Notes: generated from the sequence alone by a model not told the origin. Shown: positions 1 through 37,027, counted from the stretch's first letter. The stretch is 64,000 nucleotides of DNA from Candidatus Micrarchaeota archaeon (GCA_964490215.1 CAZBAM010000002.1:12403-76402), one strand, 5' to 3'. Numbers and translations: made by a program.

Positions 1-1641
1 TTCCTTCTCCCAGGCATAGGCGAATTTATCAAAACCGTTCGCCGCGTCCTCGCTCATGCAGAAACTGAAGACCTTTGTCTGGGGCGTCAGGTTGAGCAGG
101 TTGGAATACCCGGCCATCTGCTCGTACGACAGCCACATGGCGCCCGGGGGCCATTGGGAGGTCTCAACAGCTACCTTCGGGGAGACTGAAGAGGCGAAAA
201 CCGCAAGGAACAGCACCACCGCGGCAATCCACGCGTACCTCTGGAACCTGCCTTTCACGAGTTCAAGCAGCCATACCGCCCCGCTTCCGGCAAGAAGCGC
301 CACAGGTATCGCCAGGAAAACCCAGAATCGGTGGGGCACGAGCTTCAACGGGAGCACGTTCCCCTCGACGCCTATGAAGCAGTAAGCGAGCCAGAGGAGC
401 AGGACCAGTGAAACGAGGTCCGCCCTGTCCTTTTTCAACGCGGCTACGGCCGCTATTATCCCGCCCAGCACGAGGAGGCATGCCGCGATGCCGATGCCGA
501 CCGGCTGGTCCATCTTGGACGATTCCGGCGCGTTCAGGAAATCCTCGGCGCCGTAGATGAGGCCCCCTCCTGTATCCCCGTACCTGTCAGCGATTATCTT
601 CACGCTCAGGCTGAGCTTGTCCAGTACCTGGTCGGCAGTGTACATGGTGAACATCGGAATCCAGAACTCCAGGAGTGCGAGCACGAACGCGGCTGCGATT
701 ATTATAAGCGGCCACCTGAACGAGTCAATATCCACCTTCCCGGCGGCCATGAAGCCGCTTATCGCCATCGCGGCCAGATAGACGCCAAGCAGCCCAAGGA
801 ACATCGCTGCGGCCGAAGGCTGGCTTATCATAACCGCGGCGCATGCAAGCACCGTGAATATGCCGAACGATTTCCTCGTCTCATGCGAGGTTCTGAACCT
901 CTCAAGGAAATAGAGCGCCGGGAAAACGAGCGTCACTGCGAGGCTCTGGGACCATATGAAATGGCTCATGAAGCAGGGCAGCGCGGCCAGGATGAAGGTG
1001 GCCCAGAGGGCCTTGCGCTCTCCGATGAGCGTCCTCGCCCAGCAGAAGAAGAACGGTATGGCGAGGCTTATTACGAGGGCGTTGAAGAATTTCAGCACCA
1101 TCTGGAGCGAACCGCCGGAAACCTGGAACAGCACGCCGAGCAGGACGTCAAAGAACGGGGGGTAGGGGGCCAGGTAGTGTATCGGCAGGTGGGCGGGCTG
1201 GATGTACGTGCTGAATGCCGAAGCGTACTGAACTGCTGTGGCGTGCCCCCAGGGGTCGTCGTCCTCAAGCCAGGGATAACCGGTTGCCCCGATGAAATAG
1301 ACGCACAGGTGCACGACGAATAGCAGGGATATCATCACCCACGTCCTGGACACGCCTGATGCGCCGGATACGCCTGACAGCGCAGGCATCCTCAGCGAAA
1401 AATCCCATTTCCTGAAGGCCAATGCGAGAAGCACTACGGTGAGGACCAGGTAGGTGAGCCAGTTTGAGAGGTGGAGGAAGCCCAATAGCGTCGTGGCCTG
1501 CACGAAAACCACCATGCCGCCCGCTATGTAAAGGAACAGGCGCGCAACCCCGTCCTCTTCGCTGATTCCGAGCAGTTTCCATGCGGCAAGGCCCAAACCC
1601 ATGCTTATGAAAAGGAAATACAGGACGGCGATGACTAACAT
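1..1641 (-). CDS. Partial (5'-complete, continues past window start) large polytopic membrane protein; GT-C glycosyltransferase-like (possible AglB/STT3- or PMT-like; has an EDDDPWGH motif in the first extracytoplasmic loop)
   Basis: Minus-strand frame from ATG at 1641 translates without stops to position 1 (MLVIAVLYFLFISMGLGLAAWKLLGISEEDGVARLFLY...YPWLEDDDPWGHATAVQY...). Multiple hydrophobic segments. Not in the ORF track because it is edge-truncated. Confidence 0.35.
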   Translation of the reverse strand, partial: MLVIAVLYFLFISMGLGLAAWKLLGISEEDGVARLFLYIAGGMVVFVQATTLLGFLHLSNWLTYLVLTVVLLALAFRKWDFSLRMPALSGVSGASGVSRTWVMISLLFVVHLCVYFIGATGYPWLEDDDPWGHATAVQYASAFSTYIQPAHLPIHYLAPYPPFFDVLLGVLFQVSGGSLQMVLKFFNALVISLAIPFFFCWARTLIGERKALWATFILAALPCFMSHFIWSQSLAVTLVFPALYFLERFRTSHETRKSFGIFTVLACAAVMISQPSAAAMFLGLLGVYLAAMAISGFMAAGKVDIDSFRWPLIIIAAAFVLALLEFWIPMFTMYTADQVLDKLSLSVKIIADRYGDTGGGLIYGAEDFLNAPESSKMDQPVGIGIAACLLVLGGIIAAVAALKKDRADLVSLVLLLWLAYCFIGVEGNVLPLKLVPHRFWVFLAIPVALLAGSGAVWLLELVKGRFQRYAWIAAVVLFLAVFASSVSPKVAVETSQWPPGAMWLSYEQMAGYSNLLNLTPQTKVFSFCMSEDAANGFDKFAYAWEKE

Positions 1642-1722
1642 GAAATCGTTTCCGCTCCATTATTTTTAAATCGTTCCGTCGATGTCATAGGTGGTGCTTT
1701 CTTGGACAAAAGAATCCAGCTC

Positions 1723-2703
1723 ATGGTGAATCTCCTTGTATCAGTGATGTCCCTGGCGCTCATCGCCTACCTCGTGGGCGTGGACAAAATCCTGGCCGTG
1801 CTCCTGAAAGCCAGGCCTGAGCTGCTGGCCGCTGCGCTCCTTGCCTATGCTTTTCTGAACGTCGTCATGTCCTACCGTATCAAGGTCGTGCTTGAAGGCA
1901 TCGGAGAACGGATTAGTGTGTGGCAGGCCGTCCCATCCAACCTGGCAGGCATGCTCGCATCGGATTTCACTCCGGCAAGGGCAGGATATTTCTTCACCGC
2001 CTTCTCCATATCCTCGCGCAATGGCATCGCCCTTGAAAAAACCATCCTGTCCATCTTCGGCCCGCAGATGTTTGATTTTCTCATCAAGGTCACCTGCGCA
2101 GGCGTCCTGCTGCTCATGCTGCTCTCCATGGTGGAAGTGGGCGACATGACACTCAACGCCGCGTTCCTCCTGGCCTTCCTGGCCACGATTCTTTTCGTGA
2201 GCGTCCTGGTGTTCCATCCCCCTCTTCTCGCACGGCTCGCCTCCCTGGAATCCATCCCGTTCGTGCCGTTCGCGTTCGCTTTCCTGCGCAGGATGCACAT
2301 CCATTCGGACAAGGTGCTGGCGCTGAAGGAGAAAATAATACTCATCACGTTCTCATCCTGGTTCATCAAGGGCGTGGAATGGTTCTTCCTCTCCCGTGCC
2401 ATAGGCATATCGCTGTCCGGGAATCCCGTCCAGGACCTGCTGTTCATCATGGTATTCCAGGGGGCGATAACGATAATCCAGTTCCTTCCCATCCCGACCC
2501 TCGCCGGTGCCGGTGCGAGCGAAGCCGGGTTCGCAGCCATACTCATCTTTTTCGGAATCCCCTTTGAAGTCGGAGTGACCTTTGGCTTCCTGACGCGTCT
2601 CACCATGATCACGGTGGACATATTCTCGCTGCCCGTGATCCTCGCCTATCTGCGCAGCCACAGCCTGGAGGGGATGCTGAAGGGGATAACAGGCGCGCAT
2701 TGA
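1723..2703 (+). CDS. Flippase-like membrane protein of the lysyl-phosphatidylglycerol-synthase TM-region/UPF0104 family (often partnered with glycosyltransferases)
   Basis: ORF 1702..2703 begins at TTG; first ATG at 1723 (MVNLLVSVMSLALIAYLVG...). Polytopic hydrophobic protein with the family's typical conserved R/K and GxxG features. Confidence 0.5.
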   Translation: MVNLLVSVMSLALIAYLVGVDKILAVLLKARPELLAAALLAYAFLNVVMSYRIKVVLEGIGERISVWQAVPSNLAGMLASDFTPARAGYFFTAFSISSRNGIALEKTILSIFGPQMFDFLIKVTCAGVLLLMLLSMVEVGDMTLNAAFLLAFLATILFVSVLVFHPPLLARLASLESIPFVPFAFAFLRRMHIHSDKVLALKEKIILITFSSWFIKGVEWFFLSRAIGISLSGNPVQDLLFIMVFQGAITIIQFLPIPTLAGAGASEAGFAAILIFFGIPFEVGVTFGFLTRLTMITVDIFSLPVILAYLRSHSLEGMLKGITGAH

Positions 2704-2722
2704 CGCCCCCTGAGGCGAGGCA

Positions 2723-2731
2723 TTTAAAATT
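2723..2731 (+). promoter_or_regulatory. TATA-box-like element upstream of the GT-C-like membrane protein gene
   Basis: tttaaaat about 25 nt upstream of ATG 2755 (leaderless-type spacing). Confidence 0.35.
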
Positions 2732-2754
2732 TGTCCCCAAAAATCAGGAATACA

Positions 2755-4596
2755 ATGACGCTGCCAAGGGAAAGCCTGCTCATTCTGTGCGAAATCGTCC
2801 TGATCTCGCTTACAGCCTCCTATTTCTACCAGAACGAGACCCTGTCGATGGGCGTGCTGTTCGCAGCTTACTTTTTCACGCTCTCGGCTTTGTATGTCGC
2901 GTCAAAGGCCGCATTCAGTCCAGGTGCAGGGAAGAAACCCCTGAACGACTGGGTGCTTTTTCTCATCGCCCCGGTCCTGCTCGTCACCATGCCGTCCCTG
3001 GGCCTGTTCTACGGCCTTGCCCGGTACATCCCCCTCGTATCGTTATTCCTGTTCGTTCAAATCTACGTGGGGATAAAGCTGGTGGAAGCCGCGGCCAGCC
3101 CCACAGGCAGCACCACGGTCAGGAAAACCGGCGTCGTGATTTCGGACCGTGCGCTCTGCATGTTCCTCTTCCTCGTCCTGCTTGCTGCAACCCTGTCGCG
3201 CTTCGTCTTCATTGACGCGGATTTCCTCAATTACGCCAGCATCAGGCAATACCAGACGATCCTCATCGCGAAAAACTTTTACCTGGACAAGATAGACCTC
3301 ATAAGCCCGCTGACCGATTACGCGAAGGAGTCAAACCGGGTTTTCACCCTCAATGGCCTGGAATTCCAGTTCCTCCCCCTAGCCAGCCAGCCCCTGCTGC
3401 ACCTTTTCGGCATGACGAACGCGTCGTTGAGGCTCGCCCCAGTCGTATTCTCGCTGCTTTCCCTCTCGCTCTTCTACGTCCTCCAACGGAAGCGTTTTGA
3501 AGGCCGGAATATGGCGGTCATCGCGACAATCCTGTTCTCCCTGTTCCCCCTGAATCTTTTCATCGGGCGGGCTTACCTGCCGGAAGGGCTGTCGGTCCTG
3601 TCCGTGCTCCTCTTCCTCTACTTTTACGGCAGGTTCAGGGAGTCATGCACGCTCTCGTCGGGCGCCCTCCTTTTCCTTTCCGAAACGCTGCTCTTCCTTT
3701 CCAAGCCGCCCCTGGTCACGCTCGTCGTTCCATTCGTACTCTATGAGCTTTTCATCGTCAGGAAAGCCGGGCTCCGTTTCCTGGCCATCTTCGTGGCTGC
3801 GGCTTTGGTGGACGGGGTGTATTACCTCCTGCAGATAGCCGCCTACAGCTACAACAACGGCAGTTCTGTCATCGGGGATTACATGCACCTCTCCAACCTG
3901 CTCGGCGCCGACTACTACCTTTATCTTTTCTACGCCGTGGCCATCCTCGTATCCTCGGCGTTCGTCCTCATCTTCTTTTTGAAAGGGCTCCGCCTGTCTT
4001 TTGACGAATGGCGGCGTTCGGGCCCGAAAGACGCAGACCCGTACGTGCTGCTCTTCCTCGGTGTCTGCCTGTACGCGCTCGTGTTCAGCGCAGGGACCTG
4101 GGGCAACACATATTACCTGGTCCTGTGGTCCGTGCCGCTTGCGGCCATTTCCGCCCGGGGTATGGAAGGCATCCGCCGTAACGACGTCCTCCTGGCGGTA
4201 GTCGTGCTTTTTATCGCGTTCGTCCTCCCGGCCAACGTCCGCCTGCTCAGCCCTGCAGGCACAGCGCCCGCAATCCTTTCCATTTCAGGGGCAGTGTCCT
4301 CGCTTGCGGCCAACGACAGTTATTTCCTCTACGGGGACTGCTACCCGGACAAGAATAACATGTGGCCCGAAACGGTGTACCTCTCGGGCAGGAAAGCGCT
4401 GTACGTGGGGCTGGAGAACACCTCCCTCGCTTCGGTGGAATGCCTGCTCAGGGAGAACGGCCTGCACGTTTACGAAGGCCCGCTGAGCGACGGTTATGAC
4501 GGGAACCGGAGCCGCATGGTGCTTGTGGCGACCTACCCCTCGGTCAACTGCAACACCACCTACGTCCTTTTCCTCAACCGCTCCACGGGCGGCTGA
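2755..4596 (+). CDS. Large polytopic membrane protein, GT-C-type glycosyltransferase-like (ArnT/PMT-like architecture), with a C-terminal extracytoplasmic domain containing NxS/T sequons
   Basis: ORF 2731..4596 begins at TTG; ATG at 2755 (MTLPRESLLILCEIVLISL...). TATA-like tttaaaat about 25 nt upstream. At least 12 predicted TM segments followed by a soluble C-terminus. Confidence 0.4.
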   Translation: MTLPRESLLILCEIVLISLTASYFYQNETLSMGVLFAAYFFTLSALYVASKAAFSPGAGKKPLNDWVLFLIAPVLLVTMPSLGLFYGLARYIPLVSLFLFVQIYVGIKLVEAAASPTGSTTVRKTGVVISDRALCMFLFLVLLAATLSRFVFIDADFLNYASIRQYQTILIAKNFYLDKIDLISPLTDYAKESNRVFTLNGLEFQFLPLASQPLLHLFGMTNASLRLAPVVFSLLSLSLFYVLQRKRFEGRNMAVIATILFSLFPLNLFIGRAYLPEGLSVLSVLLFLYFYGRFRESCTLSSGALLFLSETLLFLSKPPLVTLVVPFVLYELFIVRKAGLRFLAIFVAAALVDGVYYLLQIAAYSYNNGSSVIGDYMHLSNLLGADYYLYLFYAVAILVSSAFVLIFFLKGLRLSFDEWRRSGPKDADPYVLLFLGVCLYALVFSAGTWGNTYYLVLWSVPLAAISARGMEGIRRNDVLLAVVVLFIAFVLPANVRLLSPAGTAPAILSISGAVSSLAANDSYFLYGDCYPDKNNMWPETVYLSGRKALYVGLENTSLASVECLLRENGLHVYEGPLSDGYDGNRSRMVLVATYPSVNCNTTYVLFLNRSTGG

Positions 4597-4645
4597 CCCC
4601 GCCGTCCAGCACGATTTAAATATCCCCAGCAGCAAACCCCATATC

Positions 4646-5362
4646 ATGCCCCAGGTCAGCATTATACTGCCCACCCGGAACGAGGCGGAATGCATCACGA
4701 CCACCCTGACTTCCATAACGAGCCAGCTCGGGGCTGATGGCCTGGATTATGAAGTCATCGTAATGGACGACGAAAGCAAGGACGGCACCCAGGCGCTTGT
4801 AGAATCATTCTCAAAGAAAAACCCGGTCATCCGGCTCGTCCGGAGGAAGCCGCCATACGGCTTCGGGTATTCCATCCGGGAGGGCGTCGCACTGTCCCGC
4901 GGGAAATTGATAGTCGTGATGATGGCAGACCTTTCGGACGACCCTGCATTCGTCAAGGACATGTGGGCTAGGTTCAACGACGGCTACGACGTCGTGGTCG
5001 GCTCGCGGTTCATCAACGGCGCGAAAATATCCAATTACCCCCGCCTGAAATACCTCTCCAACCGGCTGTTCAACCTCTTCATCATGGCGTTCTTCCTCAC
5101 CAGCGTGAGGGACACCTCCAACAACTTCAAGGCGTTCGCAGCCTCCAAAATCCGGAAGATGTCATTCGAGTCCACGGGTTTTGAAATAGGCGCCGAGATG
5201 ATGCTCAGGATGCTCCTGGGCGGCGCCCGTGTCGTTGAGATTCCGGTGAGCTGCTCAGGCCGCACGAAGGGCACAGCGAAATTCAGGCTTTCCAATACCG
5301 CTTTAAAATATTTCCTCCTTTTCCTTAGGATGCTGAAGAGGCGCTTTTTGGTGGAAAAATGA
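4646..5362 (+). CDS. GT2 family glycosyltransferase, dolichyl-phosphate sugar synthase (Dpm1/AglJ-like)
   Basis: MPQVSIILPTRNEAECI...VIVMDDESKDGT...; classic GT-A DxD. Internal ATG at 4646 within ORF 4496..5362. Stop overlaps the next start. Confidence 0.65.
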   Translation: MPQVSIILPTRNEAECITTTLTSITSQLGADGLDYEVIVMDDESKDGTQALVESFSKKNPVIRLVRRKPPYGFGYSIREGVALSRGKLIVVMMADLSDDPAFVKDMWARFNDGYDVVVGSRFINGAKISNYPRLKYLSNRLFNLFIMAFFLTSVRDTSNNFKAFAASKIRKMSFESTGFEIGAEMMLRMLLGGARVVEIPVSCSGRTKGTAKFRLSNTALKYFLLFLRMLKRRFLVEK

Positions 5363-6573
5363 AGGTGTGTGTAGTAGGTATCGGACGCGTAGGCCTTCCG
5401 CTGGCCCTTTACCTCGCTTCAAAAGGCCTGGAATCCCGCGGCTTGGACATAGACGCGAAAAAGGTGGAGCTGCTGAAGAGCGGCAGGATGCCGTTCCCTG
5501 AGGACGGGGCAGCGCCCCTGCTGGCGAAGACGCTTGGCAAGTCCTTCTTCCCGACGACCGAATTCTCTGCGGTTTCCGGTGTTGACACCATCATCATGAC
5601 GCTCGGGACGCCGGTGGACGAGTTCCTCAACCCGGATTTCTCACAGATACATTCTTCCCTTGAAGCCCTCCTGCCCCACCTGCGCGAGGGCCAGCTGCTC
5701 ATCCTGCGGAGCACGGTCTCGCCGGGCTCCACCGAGCACATAAAAAATTACATTGAATCCAAAAGCTCCTACCGTATCGGCAGGAACTTTTACCTGGCCT
5801 TCTGCCCGGAGCGCATCGCGCAGGGCAAGGCCCTCAAGGAACTCGGCGAGCTCCCTGAAATAGTCGGGGGCATAGACGAGGCGAGCACGCGCAAGGCCAC
5901 GGCTTTCTTCAAGACCTTCAAGGACGAGGTGTATCCCACCACGGCAATCAATGCCGAGCTCACCAAGCTGTTCACGAACATGTACCGCTACATAAATTTC
6001 TCAATTGCGAACGAGTTCATGATAATCTCCGAGGAATGGGGGGCCAACATTTACGAGATAACCGACCTTGCCAACCGGAAATACCCGCGCGGCGGGCCGA
6101 GGCCGCCCGGGTTCGCCGCAGGCCCCTGCCTTTTCAAGGACGGCTTCTTCCTGCTGGAGAGCATGCCATTCCCTGACCTGATAACCGCCGCATGGAAGAT
6201 AAACGAGACCATCCCTGGCTACCTGGTCCAGAAGGCGAAGAAGCTGAAGGCCATAAAGGGCGCCAAATGCGCCATACTCGGGATGGCTTTCAAGGCGAAC
6301 AACGACGACGAGCGGGCGTCGCTCTCCCACAAGGTCAGGAAGCTGTTCCAGAAGGAGATGGCTGACGTGCACACGCACGACGTGTTCAGGGACGGCAAGG
6401 ACTTTGATGCCCAGGTCCGGGGCGCCGACTTCCTCGTCATCGCGACCGTGCACGACGAATACAGGAAGCCCTTTGAATATTACCGGAAGCTCATAAAGAA
6501 GGACGCGGTCGTGATAGATATATGGAACGTCTTCGGGAAAAACCGCGTGATTTTCAGGTGTTCTGATGGCTAA
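5359..6573 (+). CDS. Nucleotide-sugar dehydrogenase (UDP-glucose/UDP-ManNAc 6-dehydrogenase family)
   Basis: N-terminal Rossmann MKVCVVGIGRVGLPLALYLA; central and C-terminal UDPG_MGDP_dh-type domains; catalytic Cys region GPCLFKDG. Confidence 0.7.
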   Translation: MKVCVVGIGRVGLPLALYLASKGLESRGLDIDAKKVELLKSGRMPFPEDGAAPLLAKTLGKSFFPTTEFSAVSGVDTIIMTLGTPVDEFLNPDFSQIHSSLEALLPHLREGQLLILRSTVSPGSTEHIKNYIESKSSYRIGRNFYLAFCPERIAQGKALKELGELPEIVGGIDEASTRKATAFFKTFKDEVYPTTAINAELTKLFTNMYRYINFSIANEFMIISEEWGANIYEITDLANRKYPRGGPRPPGFAAGPCLFKDGFFLLESMPFPDLITAAWKINETIPGYLVQKAKKLKAIKGAKCAILGMAFKANNDDERASLSHKVRKLFQKEMADVHTHDVFRDGKDFDAQVRGADFLVIATVHDEYRKPFEYYRKLIKKDAVVIDIWNVFGKNRVIFRCSDG

Positions 6574-7534
6574 TGTCCTTGTTACCGGCGGAGCGGGTTT
6601 CATAGGGAGCGCAGTGGTCAACGAGCTGCTCAAGGCAGGCCATGACGTGACGGTCGTGGACAACCTGAGCAAGGGTGCCCAGACGAACCTGGACATGAAG
6701 AAGGTGACGTTCAAGCGCGCAGACCTGTGCGACGCCTCGCAGGTGTCCTCCCTCCTGGCCGACCAGGAATACTGCTTCCATTTCGCCGCACGCATCGGGG
6801 GCATAGGGTATTTCCACAAATACCCCGCTGAAATCCTCAGGGACAACACCCTGATGTACTCCAACCTGCTTGACGAGGCACTGCGGTCCAAGTCCTTCAG
6901 GAAGATGATATACATCTCGTCGTCCATGGTTTTTGAGAGGACGGACCATTTCCCCTCAAACGAAGAGGACGTGTGGAGCTCGCCGCCGCCGATAAGCCAT
7001 TACGGGTTCTCAAAGCTCGTCGGCGAGTACTATTCGGCAGCCTACCACGACCAATACGGCCTTTCATACTCAGTGTTCCGCCCGTTCAACGCCTACGGGC
7101 CAGGCGAATCACCTGACAACGAGCCGGGCATAGCCCACGTGATACCAGACCTGATAAAGAAGATTTATTTTGACAAGCAGTATCCCGTGGAGATATTCGG
7201 GGACGGGAACCAGGTGCGCTCCTACACCTACGTCACGGACCTGGCAGAAGCGGTCGCATCGCTCTCATTTGACAAGCGGACCGACAACGCGGCCTACAAC
7301 GTCGCCAACCCCCAGCCCGTTACCGTCCTGGAACTGCTCGACAAGATATGGAAGCTCTGCGGCCCGGCAGGCAAGCCGCTCAAGATCGCGCACCTCAAGC
7401 CGTTCAAGGACGACGTGAGGAGGCGGATACCGAGCGCGGACAAGGTCTTCTCGCTCGGCTGGAGGCCGAAGGTAAACCTGGACGAGGGCCTGAAAAGAAC
7501 CTTTGAATGGATAAAAGCCAAACAGTCTTCCTGA
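6566..7534 (+). CDS. NAD-dependent nucleotide-sugar epimerase/dehydratase (extended SDR)
   Basis: VTGGAGFIGS Rossmann motif, YxxxK (YGFSKLVGE). Start overlaps the upstream dehydrogenase stop. Confidence 0.65.
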   Translation: MANVLVTGGAGFIGSAVVNELLKAGHDVTVVDNLSKGAQTNLDMKKVTFKRADLCDASQVSSLLADQEYCFHFAARIGGIGYFHKYPAEILRDNTLMYSNLLDEALRSKSFRKMIYISSSMVFERTDHFPSNEEDVWSSPPPISHYGFSKLVGEYYSAAYHDQYGLSYSVFRPFNAYGPGESPDNEPGIAHVIPDLIKKIYFDKQYPVEIFGDGNQVRSYTYVTDLAEAVASLSFDKRTDNAAYNVANPQPVTVLELLDKIWKLCGPAGKPLKIAHLKPFKDDVRRRIPSADKVFSLGWRPKVNLDEGLKRTFEWIKAKQSS

Positions 7535-9051: not shown

Positions 9052-9153
9052 CCGCAATCACTCAATGTTGCAACGTGCTTTATTACGCCTGAGCTTCCCC
9101 GATTTATATATCGTCTTAACGCTATTTAATTCTTGCGCACCATCTCTTCTCTG

Positions 9154-11071: not shown

Positions 11072-11261
11072 GCGGGCGCTGGAAAAGAGGATATGAGCCG
11101 CCTTCATTACGGTTGAACTGTCCGGTGAACCCACGCGCACGACTGAAAGGAGTGCGCGTGCCAGTCCTGGGAGAAGCCGTCTAAGTGAGGGCGAAGAAAA
11201 TAGAGCGAGCGAGGCACGGCCGACGCGAGCGAACGATGTAATACCTATTGCTGGGATGACA

Positions 11262-28697: not shown

Positions 28698-29291
28698 ATG
28701 GTTACAACGATGAAACCATCCGATTTGTTGCAGGAGCACTTCAAAGCCTGCCAGCGCATCAGCGCCGCCGAGATTGAGGCAGTCGCATCCCCAATCATCG
28801 CCGCCCTCAAGGCCGGCAACAAGGTCCTCATCTGCGGCAACGGCGGCAGTGCCGCCGACGCCCAGCATTTCGCGGCAGAGCTCAGCGGCAGGTACGTCCG
28901 GGAAAGGAAGGCGCTGCCAGGCATCGCGCTCACTGCCGACACGTCAGTGCTGACGGCGATTTCAAACGACTACGGATTCGGGCGCGTGTTCGCACGCCAG
29001 GTGGAGGCGCTTGGCAGGAAGGGCGACGTGCTCGTGCTCATAAGCACCAGCGGCGAGTCCGAGAACCTGCTGGAGGCCGCGAACGCGGCGAAGGCGCTCG
29101 GCATGGCCACGGTCGGCCTCCTCGGGAAAGGGGGCGGGCGGCTGAAGATGCCGTGCGACAGGTCGCTCGTGGTCGCCTCGGACAGCACGCCGGCGGTGCA
29201 GGAGATGCACATACTCATAATCCACTGCATCTGCGGGATGGTGGACGACGCGTTCGCAGGGCCGTTGCGCGTAGCCCACAAAAGCGGGTAG
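28698..29291 (+). CDS. gmhA: D-sedoheptulose-7-phosphate isomerase (SIS domain)
   Basis: [22 protein letters not shown], the GmhA signature. Confidence 0.7.
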
Positions 29292-29296
29292 CTGCC

Positions 29297-30313: not shown

Positions 30314-30320
30314 TGATTCC

Positions 30321-30815
30321 ATGGGTGAACTACTTACGCTTGAAAAGCTCGCGGCCGTGCGGCAGAAGCTCAGGGACCAGGACAAGAAGGCGAAGGTCGT
30401 TTTCACCAACGGGGTGTTTGACCTGATGCACGTGGGCCACGTGCGCTTCCTGAAAAAGGCGAAATCGCACGGTGCAGTGCTCATCGTCGGCATCAACTCG
30501 GACGAGTCGGTGAAAAAGATAAAAGGCCCGTCCAGGCCCATAGTGGCAGAGAAATACCGTGCCGAAGTCCTGTGCGCGCTCTCCTGCGTTGATTACGTGG
30601 TCATTTTCGGGGAAACCACCCCGGAAAAAACGATTGAAGCGCTCCAGCCGGACATCCACGTGAAGGGCGGCGACTGGAAGGCTGACAAAATGCCCGAGAC
30701 CGGGCTCGTGCGCTCCTACGGCGGCAGGGTGGTCATAGAGGATTCCGAATCCGAGATAACCACCACTTACCTGATAAAGAAAATAATGGAAGCCTACTCA
30801 GGCGGGGTGCGGTGA
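30321..30815 (+). CDS. hldC: D-glycero-beta-D-manno-heptose-1-phosphate adenylyltransferase (HldE domain II, cytidylyltransferase-like)
   Basis: KVVFTNGVFDLMHVGHVRFLKKAK...INSDESVKKIKGPSRP (HxGH motif). Confidence 0.7.
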   Translation: MGELLTLEKLAAVRQKLRDQDKKAKVVFTNGVFDLMHVGHVRFLKKAKSHGAVLIVGINSDESVKKIKGPSRPIVAEKYRAEVLCALSCVDYVVIFGETTPEKTIEALQPDIHVKGGDWKADKMPETGLVRSYGGRVVIEDSESEITTTYLIKKIMEAYSGGVR

Positions 30816-30819
30816 GCCC

Positions 30820-31950
30820 TTGCCCCTGTTTTACGGGATTGAGCGCGTCGTGGAGAAGAACGTCCTCCCGGCGTTCTGCACGCTGCTCTCCTTCTTCAAG
30901 AGGAAGCGCCAGCCCGGCCCGGAGCCGAAGGGCATCCTCGTCCTGCGCTTCTGGGGCGTTGGCGAGACGATACTCACGCTGCCCATGCTCAAGGCGCTCA
31001 AGGCCGCGAGGCCGGACGCGAAAATCACGGTCCTTTGCACCCCGCGCAACCGCGAAGTGTTCTTCGCCCAGCCGTTCATAGACGCGTGCAGGACCGTGTG
31101 GACGTGGCAGCTCCCGGCGCTCGTGCTCGCGAACCTGTGGAAATACGACCTCGTGCTGGACACCGAGCCGCATTTCGCGATATCCGCCATCCTCGCCTTC
31201 TTCATGGGGAAGCGCTCCATCGGTTTCGGCTACGGTGAGCGGGCGAAGCTCTACGACGTAAAAGTCCCTTACAACGACCGCCAGCACGTGGTCTATACGT
31301 TCTGCGACCTGCTCCAGCCCCTTGGCATCGCTGCAAGGCCGGCCGAACTCGTCCGGTTGAAATACGGCGAGGACGCGCGCAAGGCCGCCGAGCTGCGCTT
31401 TGAGGCCAACAACATCCAGCCGAAAACCGGCAAGCCGATTGTCGGCGTGCACGCGTTCTGCGGCCCGACAGCCCCGTGGCGCGCATGGCCCAGGGAGCGC
31501 TTCGCAGAGCTGATAGATAGGATAACCGCGAAATACGGGTGCACGGTGATACTTACCGGCTCAGGGGCCGAGGCCGCAGGCAACGAGCAGATAATCTCGC
31601 TGCTGAAACGGAAGGGCTGCGTGTACAATTTCCCTGACCTCGCCTCGTCAACGCTCTTCTACCTCATAAGCCAGTACGACCTCATGATATCCAACGACAC
31701 CGGCCCGATGCACATCGCCGCGGCCCAGGGCGTGCCGGCCATAGGCCTTTTCGGCCCGAACACGCCGGAGCGCTTCGGCCCGTTCCCGCCGGGCCGCAAC
31801 GTCGCCATCTATCACCAGACGCCCGGCCACCCGGTCATAAACGTCCATCTCAACGAATTCGGCAAGTGCGACGGCGCGTGCATGCGCCTGATAACCGTGG
31901 ATGAGGTCTTCGCCGCTGCGGACGGCATCCTCGCCAGGAGAAGGGCGTGA
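30820..31950 (+). CDS. GT9-family glycosyltransferase (ADP-heptose-dependent heptosyltransferase-like)
   Basis: GILVLRFWGVGETILTLPMLKAL...; C-terminal NDTGPMHIAAAQGVPAIGLFGP, typical of the RfaF/RfaC/WaaQ family. Confidence 0.6.
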   Translation: MPLFYGIERVVEKNVLPAFCTLLSFFKRKRQPGPEPKGILVLRFWGVGETILTLPMLKALKAARPDAKITVLCTPRNREVFFAQPFIDACRTVWTWQLPALVLANLWKYDLVLDTEPHFAISAILAFFMGKRSIGFGYGERAKLYDVKVPYNDRQHVVYTFCDLLQPLGIAARPAELVRLKYGEDARKAAELRFEANNIQPKTGKPIVGVHAFCGPTAPWRAWPRERFAELIDRITAKYGCTVILTGSGAEAAGNEQIISLLKRKGCVYNFPDLASSTLFYLISQYDLMISNDTGPMHIAAAQGVPAIGLFGPNTPERFGPFPPGRNVAIYHQTPGHPVINVHLNEFGKCDGACMRLITVDEVFAAADGILARRRA

Positions 31951-31960: not shown

Positions 31961-32995
31961 ATGCCCAGGATAGCCTTCCGCGCAGAGTCAGACCCCAAAT
32001 CAGGTTCCTGGCGGCTGCTGCGCTGCCTTGCGCTCGCGTCAGGCCTGAAGGAAACGGACCCCTCGTGCGAAATCACGTTCCTTTCGCACGCGCGCGACGC
32101 GCAGGCAATCGCGCGCAGCGGCTTCGGCCACGCCCAGTTTGGCGAGCTTAACCTGGTTTCCTGGGACCTTGAGGCGACCGCTGAGAAGTCAGAGGAGCTC
32201 GGCATCGGCATGCTCGTGGTGGACCGGCCCGGGATTGACGAGGAGTTCCTCAGTTCGCTCGCAGGGAAGGTGAGGACGCTCGCGGTCTTCTGCGACCAGG
32301 CCAGCCTCAAATCATACGCAGCCCACGCAGTCATAGACCCAGGCGTCCATGCGCACCTGGCCGAATACCCGTGCGGCGGGGCCACGTTCCTGGGCACCGA
32401 GTTCGCCCTGCTACAGCCGGAATTTGACGAATTCCAGGAGTTCAGTTGCCAGAACCCGGAGAAGGCCAGGCGCATTCTCGTGTATTTCAACGGCCCGGAC
32501 CACGCCCCGGAAGCCGTGCGCCTGCTCAAGCAGGTCCGCGCCCAGTTCTCCGCGTCCATAATCACCGGGCCTGAAGCCGCGGGGGGCGAGGAGCTGGCGC
32601 GGGAGATAGGCATCGACCCGCGTTTTGACGTCCTGCGCAATGACGGCAGCATCGCCAAACGGCTCGCGTCGTGCGATTTCGCCATCACCGGTCCTGAATC
32701 GCTCTGCGAGCCTGCGCTTTTCGCGCTGCCCACGGCGCTCATGGGTGAGTCGCCGGTTTCCGATTACGCAGCGAAGAACGGCCTCGCGCTTTCGCTCGGC
32801 GACGCAGGCTCCCTGGACGCCCAGGGCGCGAAGCCGCTTGAAGCGCTCCTCACTGACAAGCCTGCCCGGGACCGCATGTCAGCCCGCCTGAACGGGCTGG
32901 TGGACGGCATGGGCCGCTTCAGGCTCGCTGAAGAGCTGCTGGAGCTTCATCGGGGCGAAGGGCAGGCCGGCCGAAGCGAAAACGAACCGGTTTAA
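31961..32995 (+). CDS. Second PseG-like / glycosyltransferase-28 C-terminal-like (MurG-like) protein
   Basis: MPRIAFRAESDPKSGSWRLLRCLALA... resembles the PseG N-terminus; internal ATG 31961 within ORF 31901..32995. Confidence 0.45.
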   Translation: MPRIAFRAESDPKSGSWRLLRCLALASGLKETDPSCEITFLSHARDAQAIARSGFGHAQFGELNLVSWDLEATAEKSEELGIGMLVVDRPGIDEEFLSSLAGKVRTLAVFCDQASLKSYAAHAVIDPGVHAHLAEYPCGGATFLGTEFALLQPEFDEFQEFSCQNPEKARRILVYFNGPDHAPEAVRLLKQVRAQFSASIITGPEAAGGEELAREIGIDPRFDVLRNDGSIAKRLASCDFAITGPESLCEPALFALPTALMGESPVSDYAAKNGLALSLGDAGSLDAQGAKPLEALLTDKPARDRMSARLNGLVDGMGRFRLAEELLELHRGEGQAGRSENEPV

Positions 32996-33059: not shown

Positions 33060-33968
33060 ATGAAAATTCTCGTTACCGGGGCGCTCGGTTTCATAGGTTC
33101 CAACATCACCGAGCGGCTCGTGAAGGAAGGGCACGAAGTGACCGCGTTGGACAGCATGCACACAGGCAGCGACGCCAACATCGCGTCAGTGAAGGGGCGC
33201 GTCCGCGTCATAAAGTCCGATTCTGGCTCTGTCGGAAAGATGGAAGAGAAGTTTGACGCCATCATCCACGAGGGCACGTATTCCTCCTCCCCGATGTACC
33301 GGAAGGAGCCGCACCTTGCAGCGAAGGTGCTGGACGAATGGATATCCATCCTGGAGCATGTCAGGAAGCACGACGGCTGCAAGCTCATCTTCGCCTCGTC
33401 CAGTTCCATATACAACGGCAACCCCGCGCCTTACCGCGAGGACATGCCTGTGAAGGTCACGGACTTCTACACCGAAGGACGCCATGCCATGGAGCGCATG
33501 GCAGACCTATACCACCAGTTCTACGGCATAAAGACGACTGCGCTGCGCTATTTCAGCGTCTATGGTCCGCACGAGGACGCCAAGAAAACCTACGCGAACA
33601 TAATAACGCAGTTCCTCTGGGCCATGAAAAAGGGCGAGCGGCCGATCATACTTGGCGACGGCAGGCAGTCCAGGGACTTCATATACGTGGACGACGTCGT
33701 GGAGGCCAACATGCTCGCTCTCCGGGCCAGCAAGCACGGCGTTTTCAACGTGGGCACAGGAAAAGCGGCAAGCTTCAACGAAGTGGTGGCCATGCTCAAC
33801 CGCCAGCTGGGCACGTCCATAGAACCGGCCTACGAGCGGAACAACATAAAGAACTACGTCGGGACCACGCTTGCCGACACCACGAAGGCAGCTGAAGGGC
33901 TCGGTTTCAGGGCCAAAACCGGGCTGGAGGACGGCGTCCGGCGTCTTCTGGCGTATTATCAAAGGTAG
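33060..33968 (+). CDS. hldD: ADP-L-glycero-D-manno-heptose 6-epimerase-like SDR
   Basis: MKILVTGALGFIGSNI; IHEGTYSS (HldD FHEGACSS); RYFSVYGPHE (HldD RYFNVYGPRE); NVGTGKAASFNEVVAM (HldD NLGTGRAESFQAVADA). TATA-like tatttaatta about 30 nt upstream. Confidence 0.55.
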   Translation: MKILVTGALGFIGSNITERLVKEGHEVTALDSMHTGSDANIASVKGRVRVIKSDSGSVGKMEEKFDAIIHEGTYSSSPMYRKEPHLAAKVLDEWISILEHVRKHDGCKLIFASSSSIYNGNPAPYREDMPVKVTDFYTEGRHAMERMADLYHQFYGIKTTALRYFSVYGPHEDAKKTYANIITQFLWAMKKGERPIILGDGRQSRDFIYVDDVVEANMLALRASKHGVFNVGTGKAASFNEVVAMLNRQLGTSIEPAYERNNIKNYVGTTLADTTKAAEGLGFRAKTGLEDGVRRLLAYYQR

Positions 33969-34038: not shown

Positions 34039-35718
34039 ATGGACGGCGACGAGGACATGGTGGATGAGGTCTCGGTCCATTCCACCGAGGTCGCAAGGGG
34101 CAGCTTCTGGAGCCTTTTCGGCGGCATGTTCTACAAGTTCATCTCATTCATTTACGTGGTACTCATAGCCAGGATGGCGTCCCAGAACGACGTGGGACTC
34201 TTTTACCTCTCGCTGGCCGTGGTGACCACGTTCATAGTGGTCAGCGACCTGGGCCTGCCCGCCTCGCTCATCAGGTACGCGCCATATTTTGAAGGGAAGG
34301 GTGAGCACGGGAAAGTGCGCGCGCTGCTGAAGTACGCGTACCTGGTCGTCAGCCTCCTGAGCGTCCTGTTCTTGGCTGCCATATGGCTGTGCGCGGACAC
34401 CATAGGCTCAATGTACCAGAACCCGCTGCTGCCCGCAGCCCTGCGCGTGGTTTCCCTGTTCCTGCTGCTGAACAACATCTTCAGGATAAACTATTCCTTC
34501 CTCAACGGCCTCAGCGACATAAAGCAGATGCAGTTCCTCCTGAACATGGACAACCTGCTGAAGTTCCTGCTCACGCTGGTCTTCTTCCTGTTCCTGGGCG
34601 CCTCTTTCATCACAATCGCCGTGCCGTTCCTGCTGGCCCACCTGCTGGTCGTGCTGATGGGCTTCGTGCTCGTCTCCAGGAAGGAGCGCACCCTGCCTTC
34701 AGGCCAGGACAGCCTGCCCTCGTTCTCATTCGTGCTGAAGGAGGTCGTTCCCTTCGGCCTGATGCTCACGGCCATATACTCGTTCAACATGGTCCTGGCC
34801 TCGTCCGACCGCATCCTGCTCGGCTACCTGGCACCGCCCTCGCAGGCAACCCAGCTCGTCGCAGTCTATTCAATATCCACGACGCTGGCCACTGTGCTCA
34901 TCATGCTGCCAGGTGCGATAGGCGCCATATTCCTCCCGGTGATGTCCCGGCTCGCTGGCAGGGAAGAGCTCGGGCAGATGCGCTCCACCATGGGCACAGC
35001 CCAGCGCTGGCTCCTGTTCATCATCCTTCCGGCAACGGCCGTCATGGTCTCCCTGCCGTCCGAACTGCTGGGCATTTTCTACGGCGAGGCATACCAGGTG
35101 GGATGGCTTGCAATGGCGATATTCACCCTCGGGATAATGATGAACGGCTTCGCCTACCTGATTTCCATGGCCCTGGCGGCCCTGAGGCAGGTCGGGCTGG
35201 AACTCAGGATATCCGCAGTCTCAGCACTGGCCAACATCGCCTTCTGCATCCTGCTCATCCCAGGGTTCGGCATGGCCGGCGCGGCCGCTGCGTCATTCCT
35301 CAGCTTCACCCTGCTCGCGCTCCTCTACCGCCACTACGGCCGGCGCCTTTACGGTTTTGCGTTCCCGCCGGAGACGCCCAGGCTGATGGTGGCCGCGGTG
35401 GCCGCATTCGCCGCCATGGTCCTGCTCAAGGGGGCCGCGTTCTCCCTGCTGGGCGCGTTCTGGCAGCCTTCCAGCGCCCAGTTCTCCATCGCCGACAAGG
35501 CAGTCTACCTTTCGTTCCTGGCCCTTCTGGCAGCGTTCGTGGCAGGCGTTTTCCTCCTCCTGGCGCTCCTGCTGAAATGCCTCAGGCGCGAGGACGTGTC
35601 GCTGCTGGAGAAAATCCTGCGCCGCGCCATGGTCCCCCAGCCCCTGGCGGCGCTGGCGCTCCGCTTCGCTTCCTATGGCACCGCCGTGCCGGAGCATGCC
35701 CCGCCCGCCCGCAAATAG
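34039..35718 (+). CDS. Wzx-like oligosaccharide flippase (MOP superfamily, polysaccharide biosynthesis protein)
   Basis: About 14 predicted TM segments; N-terminal region typical of Polysacc_synt family proteins. Confidence 0.55.
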   Translation: MDGDEDMVDEVSVHSTEVARGSFWSLFGGMFYKFISFIYVVLIARMASQNDVGLFYLSLAVVTTFIVVSDLGLPASLIRYAPYFEGKGEHGKVRALLKYAYLVVSLLSVLFLAAIWLCADTIGSMYQNPLLPAALRVVSLFLLLNNIFRINYSFLNGLSDIKQMQFLLNMDNLLKFLLTLVFFLFLGASFITIAVPFLLAHLLVVLMGFVLVSRKERTLPSGQDSLPSFSFVLKEVVPFGLMLTAIYSFNMVLASSDRILLGYLAPPSQATQLVAVYSISTTLATVLIMLPGAIGAIFLPVMSRLAGREELGQMRSTMGTAQRWLLFIILPATAVMVSLPSELLGIFYGEAYQVGWLAMAIFTLGIMMNGFAYLISMALAALRQVGLELRISAVSALANIAFCILLIPGFGMAGAAAASFLSFTLLALLYRHYGRRLYGFAFPPETPRLMVAAVAAFAAMVLLKGAAFSLLGAFWQPSSAQFSIADKAVYLSFLALLAAFVAGVFLLLALLLKCLRREDVSLLEKILRRAMVPQPLAALALRFASYGTAVPEHAPPARK

Positions 35719-35769
35719 CGCTTTTATAAACCGTTCCGCTTATTATGCTGTTTCATTTGAGGTATCGGC

Positions 35770-36621
35770 ATGTTAGAGGAAGTCATATTCGGCAAGCTTG
35801 TCATGCCCGGGGAGATGGTGCGCCTCCTTGTCGCTTTCATCGGCACCTGCGCGGCAGCGTACTACGACGTTTTCAACACCAAGAACGTGCCCAACGGCCT
35901 CCTTTACGCGTTCCTGGCCGCCGCCCTCCTGGTGGACGCCATATTCTACCAGCCTGACCTGTTCTGGTTCTCCATAGGCATGGCGGTGTTCTTCTCCGCC
36001 GTGGGCTACATCTTCTACCGCGTGGGCCAGCTCGGCGGCGCGGACATCTTCGTGCTCGTCTCCATAATGCTGCTGCTGCCCATCCACCCGTCGTTCATCG
36101 GCATGCCGTTCAACATGCCCTTCGCGTTCTCGGTGTTCATATTCTCCGGCGTGCTGTTCGCGCTCTACGTCATGGCATATTTCGGCTGGAAGCTGTCCCA
36201 GAACCCGGACGTCCGGCCGAACCTCCTCTACGGCCTCATGCTGGTCCCCTACTTCCTTTTCGCCTACGTCTATGTCAACTCGTTCATATTCTCGCCGGTC
36301 TATTTCGTCTTCATCTCGCTGCTCCTGTTCGCCACCATATTCTTCCTGATGTTCAGGGACTCGCTCAACCTGCTGCTGGCAGAGGAGCTTCCGCTGGCAC
36401 AGGTCCAGCCCGAGGACGTGCTCGCGCTGGAGATAATGAACAAGGACCTGATGGAGCGGTACAAGATACAGCGCGTGGTGACCACAGCAGAGCTTGAGCG
36501 CCTGAAGAGGACGAAGGTAACGGACGTGTGGGTATACACGAAGCTGCCGCCCTTCCTGCCCTTCATAGTGGCCGGCATGGTGCTTGCGCTGTTCTTCGCG
36601 AGGAGCCTCATCCTGATATGA
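35770..36621 (+). CDS. Polytopic membrane protein, A24-family (prepilin/preflagellin peptidase-like) aspartic peptidase candidate
   Basis: GQLGGADIFVLVSIMLL resembles the GGGD(V/I)K-type motif of A24 peptidases; multiple TM segments. Confidence 0.4.
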   Translation: MLEEVIFGKLVMPGEMVRLLVAFIGTCAAAYYDVFNTKNVPNGLLYAFLAAALLVDAIFYQPDLFWFSIGMAVFFSAVGYIFYRVGQLGGADIFVLVSIMLLLPIHPSFIGMPFNMPFAFSVFIFSGVLFALYVMAYFGWKLSQNPDVRPNLLYGLMLVPYFLFAYVYVNSFIFSPVYFVFISLLLFATIFFLMFRDSLNLLLAEELPLAQVQPEDVLALEIMNKDLMERYKIQRVVTTAELERLKRTKVTDVWVYTKLPPFLPFIVAGMVLALFFARSLILI

Positions 36622-36896
36622 TTGCCGACGTCACCGCGGTCCCCAAGTCCGGGCGTTTTTCAGTTTCCCTCAAGGACGGCAAGGTGAAGATATTCCTTAA
36701 GAGCGCAGCCGAGGGCAACAAGGCCAATATGGAGCTGGTGAAGGAGCTTTCAAAACTGCTCGGTGCGCCCGTGCGCATCGTCTCAGGCCACACGTCGCGG
36801 CGCAAGCGCATTGAAGCCGGCGTCAGCGAGGCCGAATGGGCAGCATTCATACAAAAAGCGCATGCGGCCGGGAATAGGCTTAAAAATTCCGGCTGA
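36618..36896 (+). CDS. DUF167/YggU-family small protein
   Basis: MIADVTAVPKSGRFSVSLKDGKVKIFLKSAAEGNKANMELVKELSKLLGAPVRIVSGHTSRRKRIE matches the DUF167 consensus (PvdGkAN...L..G.TSR.K). ATG 36618 overlaps the upstream stop. Confidence 0.5.
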   Translation: MIADVTAVPKSGRFSVSLKDGKVKIFLKSAAEGNKANMELVKELSKLLGAPVRIVSGHTSRRKRIEAGVSEAEWAAFIQKAHAAGNRLKNSG

Positions 36897-37027
36897 GCAG
36901 ATGGAACTGAGCAAAGGGAATAAGCTTCACAAATTAGAAAAGTCAAAATTAAAAATAAATTAAAAAGCCGAAATTAAAAAAACACGTCAAAATTTAAAAA
37001 AATTAAAAAAACAAGCGGGGTGCTTAC
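36897..37027. promoter_or_regulatory. AT-rich intergenic region with tandem AAATTAAAAA-like repeats; probable promoter region for lemA–htpX
   Basis: aaaattaaaaataaattaaaaagccgaaattaaaaaaacacgtcaaaatttaaaaaaattaaaaaaa in otherwise about 60%+ GC DNA; sits at the right boundary of the glycan island. Confidence 0.4.

Follow-up and report, generated by a model that had tools for sequence, protein, structure and literature searches.

The DNA analysed here (the window) is a stretch of 64,000 nt from a Candidatus Micrarchaeota archaeon (GCA_964490215.1, CAZBAM010000002.1:12403-76402), and its positions 1-36900 hold the predicted cell-surface glycan island that is the subject of this report. Genes were called by open reading frame (ORF) length and third-position GC (GC3), and all called genes were scanned against Pfam and NCBIfam with hidden Markov models (HMMs); scores are in bits and, where two are given, the second is the curated cut-off. 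About 34 genes were found in the island, nearly all of them glycan-related in these scans (Table 1). They include six extended short-chain dehydrogenases/reductases (SDRs) and one classical SDR, two GNAT domains and two methyltransferases. Curated cut-offs were passed by RmlB, RmlA_long, GmhA, the heptose-1-phosphate adenylyltransferase domain, the nucleotide-sugar dehydrogenase subfamily, the NanM-type O-methyltransferase and the flippase-like domain. Judged from gene order and identity to related genomes, the locus is a mosaic, in which a central nonulosonic-acid cassette can be exchanged between conserved flanking blocks, an arrangement also seen in bacterial O-antigen and capsule loci.

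A first-pass annotation, made from the window alone, had described a 36-kb archaeal surface-glycan island, and nearly every gene class listed in it was recovered by the scans: the glycosyltransferase of fold C (GT-C), the GT2-type gene and the flippases of its dolichol-phosphate (Dol-P)-type membrane machinery, the GT4 and GT9 transferases (by Pfam), a dehydrogenase, at least six SDRs, a B12-binding radical SAM enzyme, two aminotransferases, a GNAT and methyltransferases; its deacetylase corresponds to a weak match. The at least four nucleotide-sugar pathways that it had named are supported as predicted pathways. The overlapping start and stop codons and the TATA boxes that it had reported are also present: island genes overlap by 4 nt and 8 nt, and AT-rich, TATA-like boxes lie about 30 nt 5' of the start codons of 19 of 38 genes (16% of random positions) and stand at the heads of transcription units. 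These units number at least 12, on both strands and with frequent strand changes. The intergenic regions 13986-14038 and 15714-15766 of two divergent gene pairs each contain one near-palindromic TATA-like box (TATTTAAA and ATTTAAAA, respectively) about 30 nt from both starts; because one box is common to both divergent starts at this distance, bidirectional promoters and leaderless mRNAs are suggested. On the left, the locus extends beyond the window; on the right, its functional end lies at about 35.7-36.6 kb. A very AT-rich spacer of 131 bp (36897-37027) with repeated AAATTAAAAA-like units stands at the boundary between the glycan locus and the LemA gene, in a genome of about 60% GC, and could be a promoter or a terminator.

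Table 1. Features called in the glycan island. Paired figures joined by "vs" are score and curated cut-off (bits); TM, transmembrane; NDP, nucleoside diphosphate.
Feature	Position	Strand	Evidence and remarks
Polytopic membrane protein, possible GT-C or polymerase-like	1-1659	-	C-terminal end cut by window edge; 13 TM-like segments
Flippase-like membrane protein (LPG_synthase_TM / TIGR00374)	1702-2703	+	PF03706 102; TIGR00374 50.9 vs 43.2
GT-C fold glycosyltransferase (PMT_2 / ArnT-like)	2731-4596	+	PF13231 36.5 vs 26.1; 12 TM-like segments
GT2, polyprenol/dolichol-phosphate sugar synthase-like	4496-5362	+	PF00535 102.5
Nucleotide-sugar 6-dehydrogenase	5359-6573	+	TIGR03026 292.9 vs 189.8; three UDPG_MGDP_dh Pfam domains
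Extended SDR epimerase/dehydratase/reductase	6566-7534	+	PF01370 188.5; no equivalog reached
B12-binding radical SAM enzyme	7543-9057	-	PF04055 and PF02310; best NCBIfam BchE, HpnJ, below cut-offs
SDR and GT4 pair (GT4 10058-11071), start of conserved left block	9133-11071	+	Pfam; 83% and 80% identical in L005, 65% and 58% in L003
Operon: LegB-family 4,6-dehydratase (12993-13985), sugar-1-phosphate nucleotidyltransferase (12208-12927), SDR (11262-12179)	11262-13985	-	TIGR04180; NTP_transferase
GNAT N-acetyltransferase (Acetyltransf_3)	14039-14626	+	PF13302 93.6
Polysialyltransferase-like GT-B, candidate nonulosonic-acid transferase	14574-15713	-	Family profile, AlphaFold2 model, motifs
Polysaccharide-deacetylase-like protein	15767-16723	+	PF01522 26 vs 23.1, weak; conserved in L003 and L005
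Class-III (GSA-like) aminotransferase and class-I methyltransferase, left flank of variable cassette	16701-18785	-	PF00202; Methyltransf_25
NeuB-family nonulosonic acid synthase, SpsE-like	18824-19942	+	PF03102 235
dTDP-glucose 4,6-dehydratase RmlB	19972-20997	+	TIGR01181 422.8 vs 365.1
N-terminal domain (about 270 aa, tentatively GT-A-like) fused to long-form glucose-1-phosphate thymidylyltransferase RmlA	20957-22843	+	TIGR01208 395.6 vs 320.25
NanM-type putative sugar O-methyltransferase	22890-23879	-	TIGR04371 70.1 vs 44; local GC 0.54
Classical SDR, PtmA/PRK09186-like oxidoreductase	23889-24710	-	adh_short_C2 185; NF006619 209.9 vs 255
PseG-like nucleotide-sugar hydrolase (GT-B) fused to WecD-like N-acetyltransferase	24745-26547	+	PseG 119.9 vs 153.55; WecD PRK10975 82.9 vs 219
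DegT-family sugar 4-aminotransferase (ArnB/PseC-like)	26601-27809	+	PF01041 395; ArnB 365 vs 631; PseC 335 vs 423.5
CMP-sugar synthetase (CTP_transf_3)	27877-28683	+	PF02348 95
NDP-heptose genes: GmhA (28698-29291), heptose-7-phosphate kinase (29297-30313), heptose-1-phosphate adenylyltransferase (30321-30815)	28698-30815	+	TIGR00441, TIGR02198, TIGR02199
GT9 glycosyltransferase (heptosyltransferase family)	30820-31950	+	PF01075 102.2 vs 22; 84% identical in Iainarchaeum genome
Second PseG-like / GT28-like GT-B protein	31961-32995	+	TIGR03590 76 vs 153.55; 77% identical in L007
SDR, best match ADP-glyceromanno-heptose 6-epimerase (HldD-like)	33060-33968	+	TIGR02197 155.7 vs 274.6; own TATA-like box at -38
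Wzx/MOP-type flippase	34039-35718	+	PF01943 and PF13440; 14 TM-like segments; 81% identical in L007
Prepilin-peptidase-like (A24) membrane protein	35770-36621	+	PF01478 23.7 vs 26.5 (below cut-off); GGAD motif

The mosaic structure was read from comparison with the following loci: L003, from a metagenome-assembled genome (MAG) labelled Micrarchaeota; L005 and L007, both of one 'Candidatus Iainarchaeum sp.' MAG (GCA_028714535.1); and L009, from a Micrarchaeota MAG. Only two parts of the island are shared with the nearest genome, namely a left block at 9.1-18.8 kb (9133-18785), which is 60-92% identical in L005 and 50-82% identical in L003, and a right block at 28.7-36.6 kb (heptose genes, GT9, PseG-like protein, SDR, Wzx and A24-like gene), which is 59-87% identical in L007. 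Between the same flanks L007 carries canonical PseB (495.7 vs 407.75), PseC (468 vs 423.5) and PseI (483 vs 340.25), and PseC and PseI are above cut-off in L009 as well. The window-type cassette is found in L003 at 62-82% identity (SpsE-like NeuB, RmlB, RmlA fusion, PtmA-like SDR, PseG-WecD fusion, DegT and CMP-transferase). The NanM-type gene is missing from the otherwise collinear L003 and coincides with a dip in GC, which suggests that it entered the cassette recently. The genes at 2.7-9.1 kb (GT-C, GT2, dehydrogenase, SDR and B12-radical SAM enzyme) are not at the corresponding place in L003, where the flippase-like gene abuts the SDR-GT4 pair. What had been taken for a single locus is therefore better described as a set of at least 12 units on both strands that is mosaic between relatives. 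Two further observations were made in related loci. The 3.9-kb, Elusimicrobiota-binned contig L004 (DATLOS010000588.1) carries DegT, adh_short, NeuB (66% identical to that of the window) and PseG-like genes in the same order, as a result of either inter-domain cassette transfer or misbinning. In L005, the glycan locus is bordered by a gene (17571-21089, minus strand) whose product exceeds 1281 aa, gave a weak beta-helix match and is a possible surface or S-layer-type substrate.

The synthase of the central cassette (18.8-28.7 kb) scored below both NCBIfam models (NeuB_NnaB, 280 vs 399.65; PseI, 234 vs 340.25), and its best match in the PDB was Bacillus subtilis SpsE (1vli, 294 bits), compared with 142 for SiaC and 130 for a solved PseI. 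The RmlA/RmlB module of the first-pass annotation is confirmed by the scores of both enzymes. The RmlA model TIGR01208 covers residues 313-666 of the ORF 20834-22843; the part N-terminal to it has coding GC3, and the fusion is kept at full length in L003 (77% identical). Besides that of L003, only two relatives of the N-terminal domain (20957-21769) were detected, one of which (34% identical) also runs into the start of an NTP-transferase. Its AlphaFold2 model is poor (predicted local distance difference test, pLDDT, 53), so that the GT-A matches (TM-score 0.3-0.4) are only a hint; a GT-A-like Rossmann half was modelled for the first 100 residues, and the rest is unmodelled. The PseG-WecD fusion, 62% identical at full length in L003, matched TDP-fucosamine acetyltransferase (2fs5) in the PDB, and the best PDB match of the DegT protein was ArnB (311 bits). 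Matches of the CMP-transferase to KdsB and PseF were weak (PseF, 25 vs 205.7). From this gene content it is concluded that a nonulosonic acid of the 5,7-diamino type, or a related one, would be made by the cassette.

Three more specific products were considered. The cassette had been called a pseudaminic-acid module, and the synthesis of canonical pseudaminic acid by dedicated Pse enzymes would agree with the fused PseG-like and GNAT domains, which fit consecutive PseH and PseG steps, with the 335 bits of the DegT protein on the PseC model, with the presence of a NeuB-family synthase and a CMP-transferase, and with the canonical Pse genes held by close relatives at the same position. However, that canonical set is exactly what the window genome lacks relative to L007: PseB (TIGR03589) was not found in the window (best SDR, 67 vs 407.75), PseC, PseG (120 vs 153.55), PseI and PseF all stay below their cut-offs, and the synthase is far nearer to SpsE than to solved PseI. 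Furthermore, Pse-looking sps genes of B. subtilis yield legionaminic acid (PMC7439481). With the cassette swapped and canonical PseB, PseC and PseI in its place in relatives, the pseudaminic type is not established, and this product is considered unlikely.

A legionaminic-type (Sps-like) sugar is a tentative alternative, somewhat on the doubtful side. NDP-4-keto-6-deoxy-GlcNAc would be supplied by the LegB-family dehydratase (469.8 vs 475) and the adjacent nucleotidyltransferase of the left block and would then undergo amination, acetylation, PseG-like hydrolysis and SpsE-like condensation, with RmlA and RmlB left for a separate dTDP-4-acetamido-4,6-dideoxyhexose or 6-deoxyhexose. SpsE, the best solved relative of the synthase, works together with a PseG homologue in the synthesis of legionaminic acid, and the B. 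subtilis sps operon likewise has rmlA and rmlB beside its nonulosonic acid genes, although the dehydratase of B. subtilis is of the PglF/CapD type and not of the LegB type. A 2-epimerase of the NeuC/LegG type was not detected in the window, where the only match was a marginal one to Epimerase_2 (E 7e-4) inside the PseG-like domain. In addition, L005 has the LegB-like trio as well, together with canonical Pse genes for its nonulosonic acid, and the trio may thus constitute an independent pathway.

The third possibility, a rather improbable one, is a non-canonical dTDP-hexose route to a 7-acetamido-3,7,9-trideoxy-nonulosonic acid that would have a 5-hydroxyl group (Kdn-like at C5) and would not be a 5,7-diacylamino sugar. 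In such a route dTDP-4-keto-6-deoxyglucose would be formed by RmlA and RmlB, aminated at C4 by the ArnB/WecE-like DegT protein and acetylated by the WecD-like half of the fusion; the PseG-like half would remove the nucleotide, and the free sugar would be condensed with phosphoenolpyruvate by the SpsE-like synthase. The NanM-like enzyme might O-methylate this product, and its transfer or polymerisation could fall to the polysialyltransferase-like protein, which would be specific to DPANN archaea. Between identical flanks, the cassette takes the place of the canonical Pse cassette of close relatives, which on this reading would mean serotype-like switching of DPANN surface glycans.

The LegB-family dehydratase on which the legionaminic proposal draws adjoins an NTP_transferase (152 bits) and is 92% identical in L005. 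The trio had previously been annotated as GDP-6-deoxyhexose-like; it consists instead of an NTP-transferase, a LegB-family 4,6-dehydratase and an SDR. By its family the dehydratase could supply the entry step of a Leg-type sugar. It may equally head a separate NDP-6-deoxy-HexNAc pathway with the class-III aminotransferase, the GNAT and the methyltransferase, since it is part of the conserved left block and recurs unchanged in a genome with a full Pse set. The class-III aminotransferase and methyltransferase pair is likewise conserved in L003 and L005 (aminotransferase 77-82% and methyltransferase 56-70% identical).

The candidate nonulosonic-acid transferase at 14574-15713 had no Pfam match on its own, neither to PF07388 nor to PF07922, and only 12 homologues were found in a large protein collection, one of them annotated from Iainarchaeum. 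Because a PDB sequence search gave nothing usable, a family profile and structure prediction were needed. Ten of 11 family members match the alpha-2,8-polysialyltransferase family PF07388 (E<=1, best 1.2e-7), and the family profile aligns to the polysialyltransferase SiaD (5wcn, E 0.0013) across the HP motif. E129 and G131 ('VEDG') as well as H264 and P265 ('HP') are invariant in the family alignment. The AlphaFold2 model (pLDDT 86.9) gave the polysialyltransferase 5wc6 as its best Foldseek match in the PDB (E 7e-10), followed by UDP-sugar 2-epimerases and then by a Neisseria GT52 sialyltransferase. Bacterial sialyltransferases (GT38 polysialyltransferases and GT52) have a GT-B fold with D/E-D/E-G and HP motifs, and the predicted fold and both motifs of the 14574-15713 protein agree with this definition. 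A function as a 2-epimerase is a minority alternative; the sialyltransferase motifs and PF07388 favour the transferase. The 'GT52/KpsS-like' label given to this gene earlier thus holds in spirit, for a rare polysialyltransferase-like GT-B, and is not borne out by any HMM match of the window protein itself.

In the right block, the genes from GmhA to the HldD-like SDR, with the GT9 and the second PseG-like GT-B, form one plus-strand run. GmhA (TIGR00441, 210.4 vs 209.45) and the HldC domain (TIGR02199, 188 vs 181.5) pass their cut-offs, and this much of the ADP-heptose module proposed in the first-pass annotation is supported; for the kinase (TIGR02198, 227.9 vs 345) and the HldD-like SDR the heptose families were the best matches, at scores below the cut-offs. 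The PfkB-type kinase and the adenylyltransferase are separate genes in the window. L007 has the heptose trio in the same order (kinase 63%, GmhA 79% and HldC-like 87% identical). Because the (F/L)XXGXSTT motif is divergent in the window ('EDSESEITTT'), no residue could be matched to the STTR5 arginine of promiscuous heptose nucleotidyltransferases. The GT9 protein does not reach the equivalogs specific for lipopolysaccharide (LPS); its homologues occur in Micrarchaeota, Aenigmarchaeota, Undinarchaeota, Woesearchaeota and Nanoarchaeota (where they are common) and in Methanococcus maripaludis. The A24-like gene is a conserved neighbour of GT9 and Wzx and adjoins the glycan locus in both L007 and L009; speculatively, it hints at pilin-like substrates.

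Characterised bacterial GT9 enzymes act on Kdo-lipid A, the CMP-transferase has its weak similarity to KdsB, and AglB was not found in the window, so that, in place of a protein-linked glycan, a lipid-anchored, LPS-core-like glycolipid or lipoglycan could be envisaged in which GT9 would heptosylate a lipid-linked core. This is a decidedly doubtful proposition: Pfam scans of the window found no genes for making lipid A or Kdo, an archaeal N-glycan is on record as containing heptose (PMC11407970), and GT9 homologues, besides being widespread among DPANN archaea, belong to M. maripaludis glycan clusters for which the interpretation is protein glycosylation.

At the left end (1-9.1 kb), the protein at 1-1659 has high GC3 and is hence coding; it had no Pfam, NCBIfam or PDB match, and only a weak local match (E 0.015) to the PMT_2 region of the neighbouring GT-C was seen. 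PDB sequence searches gave nothing usable for this protein, for those at 2731-4596, 14574-15713 and 22890-23879 or for the RmlA N-terminal domain. A homologue of the flippase-like protein (60% identical) lies at the edge of L003. The best NCBIfam matches of the GT2 protein were AglJ, Dol-P-hexose transferase and ArnC, all below cut-off. An Arn-like system for 4-amino-4-deoxy-L-arabinose, for which an ArnB-like DegT, a dehydrogenase, an SDR, an ArnC-like GT2, a GT-C and deacetylase-like parts are present, was considered and not adopted: the parts lie in separate, differently conserved blocks, in L003 and L004 the DegT gene accompanies the NeuB cassette, and no formyltransferase is present.

The archaeal origin of the island was assessed from the genes that follow it on the same contig, which encode proteasome alpha, TBP, Rpb4/RpoF, DUF655, the RFC large subunit and XPD. 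The window is collinear with L007 from 28.7 to 45 kb and breaks only at the extra genes 39474-40703 and 41712-43221; the common order is GmhA, kinase, adenylyltransferase, GT9, PseG-like, SDR, Wzx, A24-like, DUF167, LemA, M48, proteasome alpha and AA-kinase (identities: proteasome alpha 96%, AA-kinase 88%, GT9 84%). In L009, GT9, A24, DUF167, LemA, M48 and proteasome genes stand in the same order with few extra genes between them (53-84% identical, DUF167 39%). From the island through the housekeeping genes, GC stays at 0.56-0.62 until about 60 kb; a lower value (0.48-0.49) is confined to the final 4 kb. Two independent Logan assemblies are 100% identical in DNA over 14.0-29.2 kb of the window. 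It is true that many of the best-characterised homologues (ArnB, SpsE, WecD, GT9) are bacterial and that the small Elusimicrobiota-binned contig has the 66% identical NeuB homologue, and bacterial DNA joined to archaeal genes by contamination or chimeric assembly would account for both. The probability of this is vanishingly small, with GC uniform across the junction, archaeal TATA-like boxes inside the island, identical independent contigs, and the junction from the heptose block through Wzx, A24, DUF167, LemA and M48 to the proteasome gene present in independent assemblies of two related archaeal lineages; since the junction between glycan and housekeeping genes is conserved in related archaea, contamination is excluded. 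The contiguity with archaeal genes stated in the first-pass annotation, which contamination would have overturned, therefore stands. Synteny and identity to the named MAGs point to a DPANN archaeon close to 'Candidatus Iainarchaeum'.

Several side observations concern the region downstream of the island. A phosphogluco/phosphomannomutase gene 10 kb downstream is a possible supplier of sugar 1-phosphates; the longest ORFs of the phosphomutase and of glutamine synthetase (46849-48516, minus strand, and 48119-49582, plus strand, for the two) overlap by about 400 nt, so that at least one start codon must lie further in. An AAA_14/DUF4143 ATPase gene (39474-40703, plus strand), preceded by the palindrome ATGCCC-N6-GGGCAT, lies between proteasome alpha and AA-kinase; the corresponding region of both L007 and L009 is without it, which makes the gene a lineage-specific insertion. 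ARAGORN found no tRNA; with Rfam, a tRNA was found at 49979-50050 (plus strand; 36.8 bits vs gathering score 29), where it overlaps the start of the ORF 49983-50345 (no Pfam match, probably not a gene). A DEAD/ResIII helicase of 1152 aa (59594-63052, minus strand) contains an intein with a LAGLIDADG homing-endonuclease domain (residues about 51-658) and coincides with the only low-GC part of the window.

Taken together, the island is probably a mosaic cell-surface glycan biosynthesis locus of a DPANN archaeon near 'Candidatus Iainarchaeum', with a mechanism that can be proposed by analogy to the named families. In the cytoplasm, a CMP-nonulosonic acid would be made by the NeuB/SpsE-like synthase, the DegT aminotransferase, the PseG-WecD fusion and the CMP-transferase; a dTDP-4-keto-6-deoxyhexose derivative by RmlA and RmlB; an NDP-6-deoxy-HexNAc derivative by the nucleotidyltransferase, the LegB-family dehydratase and the SDR, probably with the class-III aminotransferase, GNAT and methyltransferase; an NDP-heptose by GmhA, the kinase, the adenylyltransferase and the HldD-like SDR; and an NDP-uronic acid by the dehydrogenase and an SDR. 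An oligosaccharide would be assembled on a dolichol-type carrier by GT4, GT9, the polysialyltransferase-like GT-B, the second PseG-like GT-B and perhaps the GT-A-like domain fused to RmlA, and the lipid-linked glycan would be carried outward by the Wzx-like flippase. At the outer face, the GT2, the flippase-like protein and the GT-C would attach one more sugar, donated by a Dol-P-sugar, in the manner of AglD/AglR/AglS of Haloferax. The final acceptor would most likely be surface proteins (S-layer or pilin-like), glycosylated via an AglB encoded elsewhere.

A number of observations weigh against this interpretation. Neither an oligosaccharyltransferase (WWDXG motif in six frames; STT3 Pfam) nor an initiating phosphoglycosyltransferase was found in the window, and the acceptor and the carrier chemistry are consequently inferred. 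GmhB was found neither in the window (HAD motif I in six frames; HAD Pfam) nor in the syntenic block of L007. Of the dTDP-L-rhamnose pathway, RmlA and RmlB were identified by HMM and RmlC and RmlD were not, the called genes giving no dTDP-sugar isomerase match and RmlD scores of at most 59 (vs 224). The PseG-like proteins, DegT, the NeuB-family synthase, the heptose kinase and the HldD-like SDR are all below equivalog cut-offs, and the strand switches among the at least 12 units weigh on co-regulation of the locus.

DPANN archaea have small genomes, and many of them live attached to hosts; to devote at least 36 kb to one glycan locus is therefore to invest heavily in surface chemistry. It is plausible that the locus determines how hosts, viruses or partners recognise the cell, and its conserved flanks around an exchangeable nonulosonic-acid cassette make it a clear comparative case. 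For enzymology, the SpsE-like synthase coupled to RmlA/RmlB, the polysialyltransferase-like GT-B and the RmlA-fused domain with almost no relatives are suitable targets.

The membrane machinery resembles AglD/AglR/AglS of Haloferax volcanii and bacterial ArnC/ArnT, in which a GT2 polyprenol-phosphate-sugar synthase, a flippase and a GT-C transferase act at the outer face; the same GT2-flippase-GT-C set is present in the window at 1702-5362 and 34039-35718, where no equivalog threshold is reached.

Among described clusters, 'glycan biosynthesis cluster 1' of M. maripaludis KA1, which varies between strains, has an operon for a sialic-acid-like sugar beside an ADP-heptose operon, together with flippase-like and glycosyltransferase genes (PMC12667266), and an M. 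maripaludis GT9 is 39% identical to that of the window. KA1 belongs to the Euryarchaeota whereas the window is from a DPANN archaeon; the KA1 cluster is known from annotation only and was likened by description, and AglB is reported there and was not found in the window. The first-pass annotation had held the combination of sialic-acid-like and LPS-core-like sugars in one archaeal locus not to be a described system; since KA1 pairs the two operons, the combination is already described at the genomic level, and there are archaeal precedents for heptose and for legionaminic acid. The N-glycan of Thermoplasma acidophilum contains heptose (PMC11407970), and archaeal NDP-heptose biosynthetic enzymes have been shown to be functional (Tang et al. 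2024, as reported in PMC11461863). In comparison with the NDP-heptose system outlined there, GmhA, kinase, adenylyltransferase, HldD-like SDR and GT9 likewise stand in one run in the window, whereas kinase and transferase are separate genes, GmhB was not found and the acceptor cannot be Kdo-lipid A. In Halorubrum sp. PV6, the legionaminic acid genes (LegB, aminotransferase, NeuB homologue and CMP-synthetase) are clustered with N-glycosylation genes (PMC6137143); a NeuC-type LegG is used and the cluster adjoins aglB, whereas the window has PseG-like proteins instead and aglB was not found in it.

The sps cluster of B. subtilis (spsA-L and spsM, spore crust) contains, like the window, an SpsE-like synthase, a DegT aminotransferase, a GNAT, a PseG homologue, a CMP-transferase and rmlA/rmlB, and SpsC-G and SpsM look Pse-like yet yield legionaminic acid (PMC7439481). 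It differs in being bacterial, in its PglF/CapD-type and unlinked SpsM and in the presence of rmlC and rmlD; in the window, RmlC, RmlD and an SpsM-type enzyme were not found, PseG is fused to the acetyltransferase, and RmlA has an extra N-terminal domain. With clusters for nonulosonic acid and heptose, NDP-heptose synthesis, and N-glycans containing heptose or legionaminic acid already recorded in archaea, the locus is no new kind of system; what is new here is the DPANN lineage, the clean swap of a cassette between conserved flanks, the non-canonical nonulosonic-acid cassette around RmlA/RmlB, the rare polysialyltransferase-like family and the almost orphan domain fused to RmlA.

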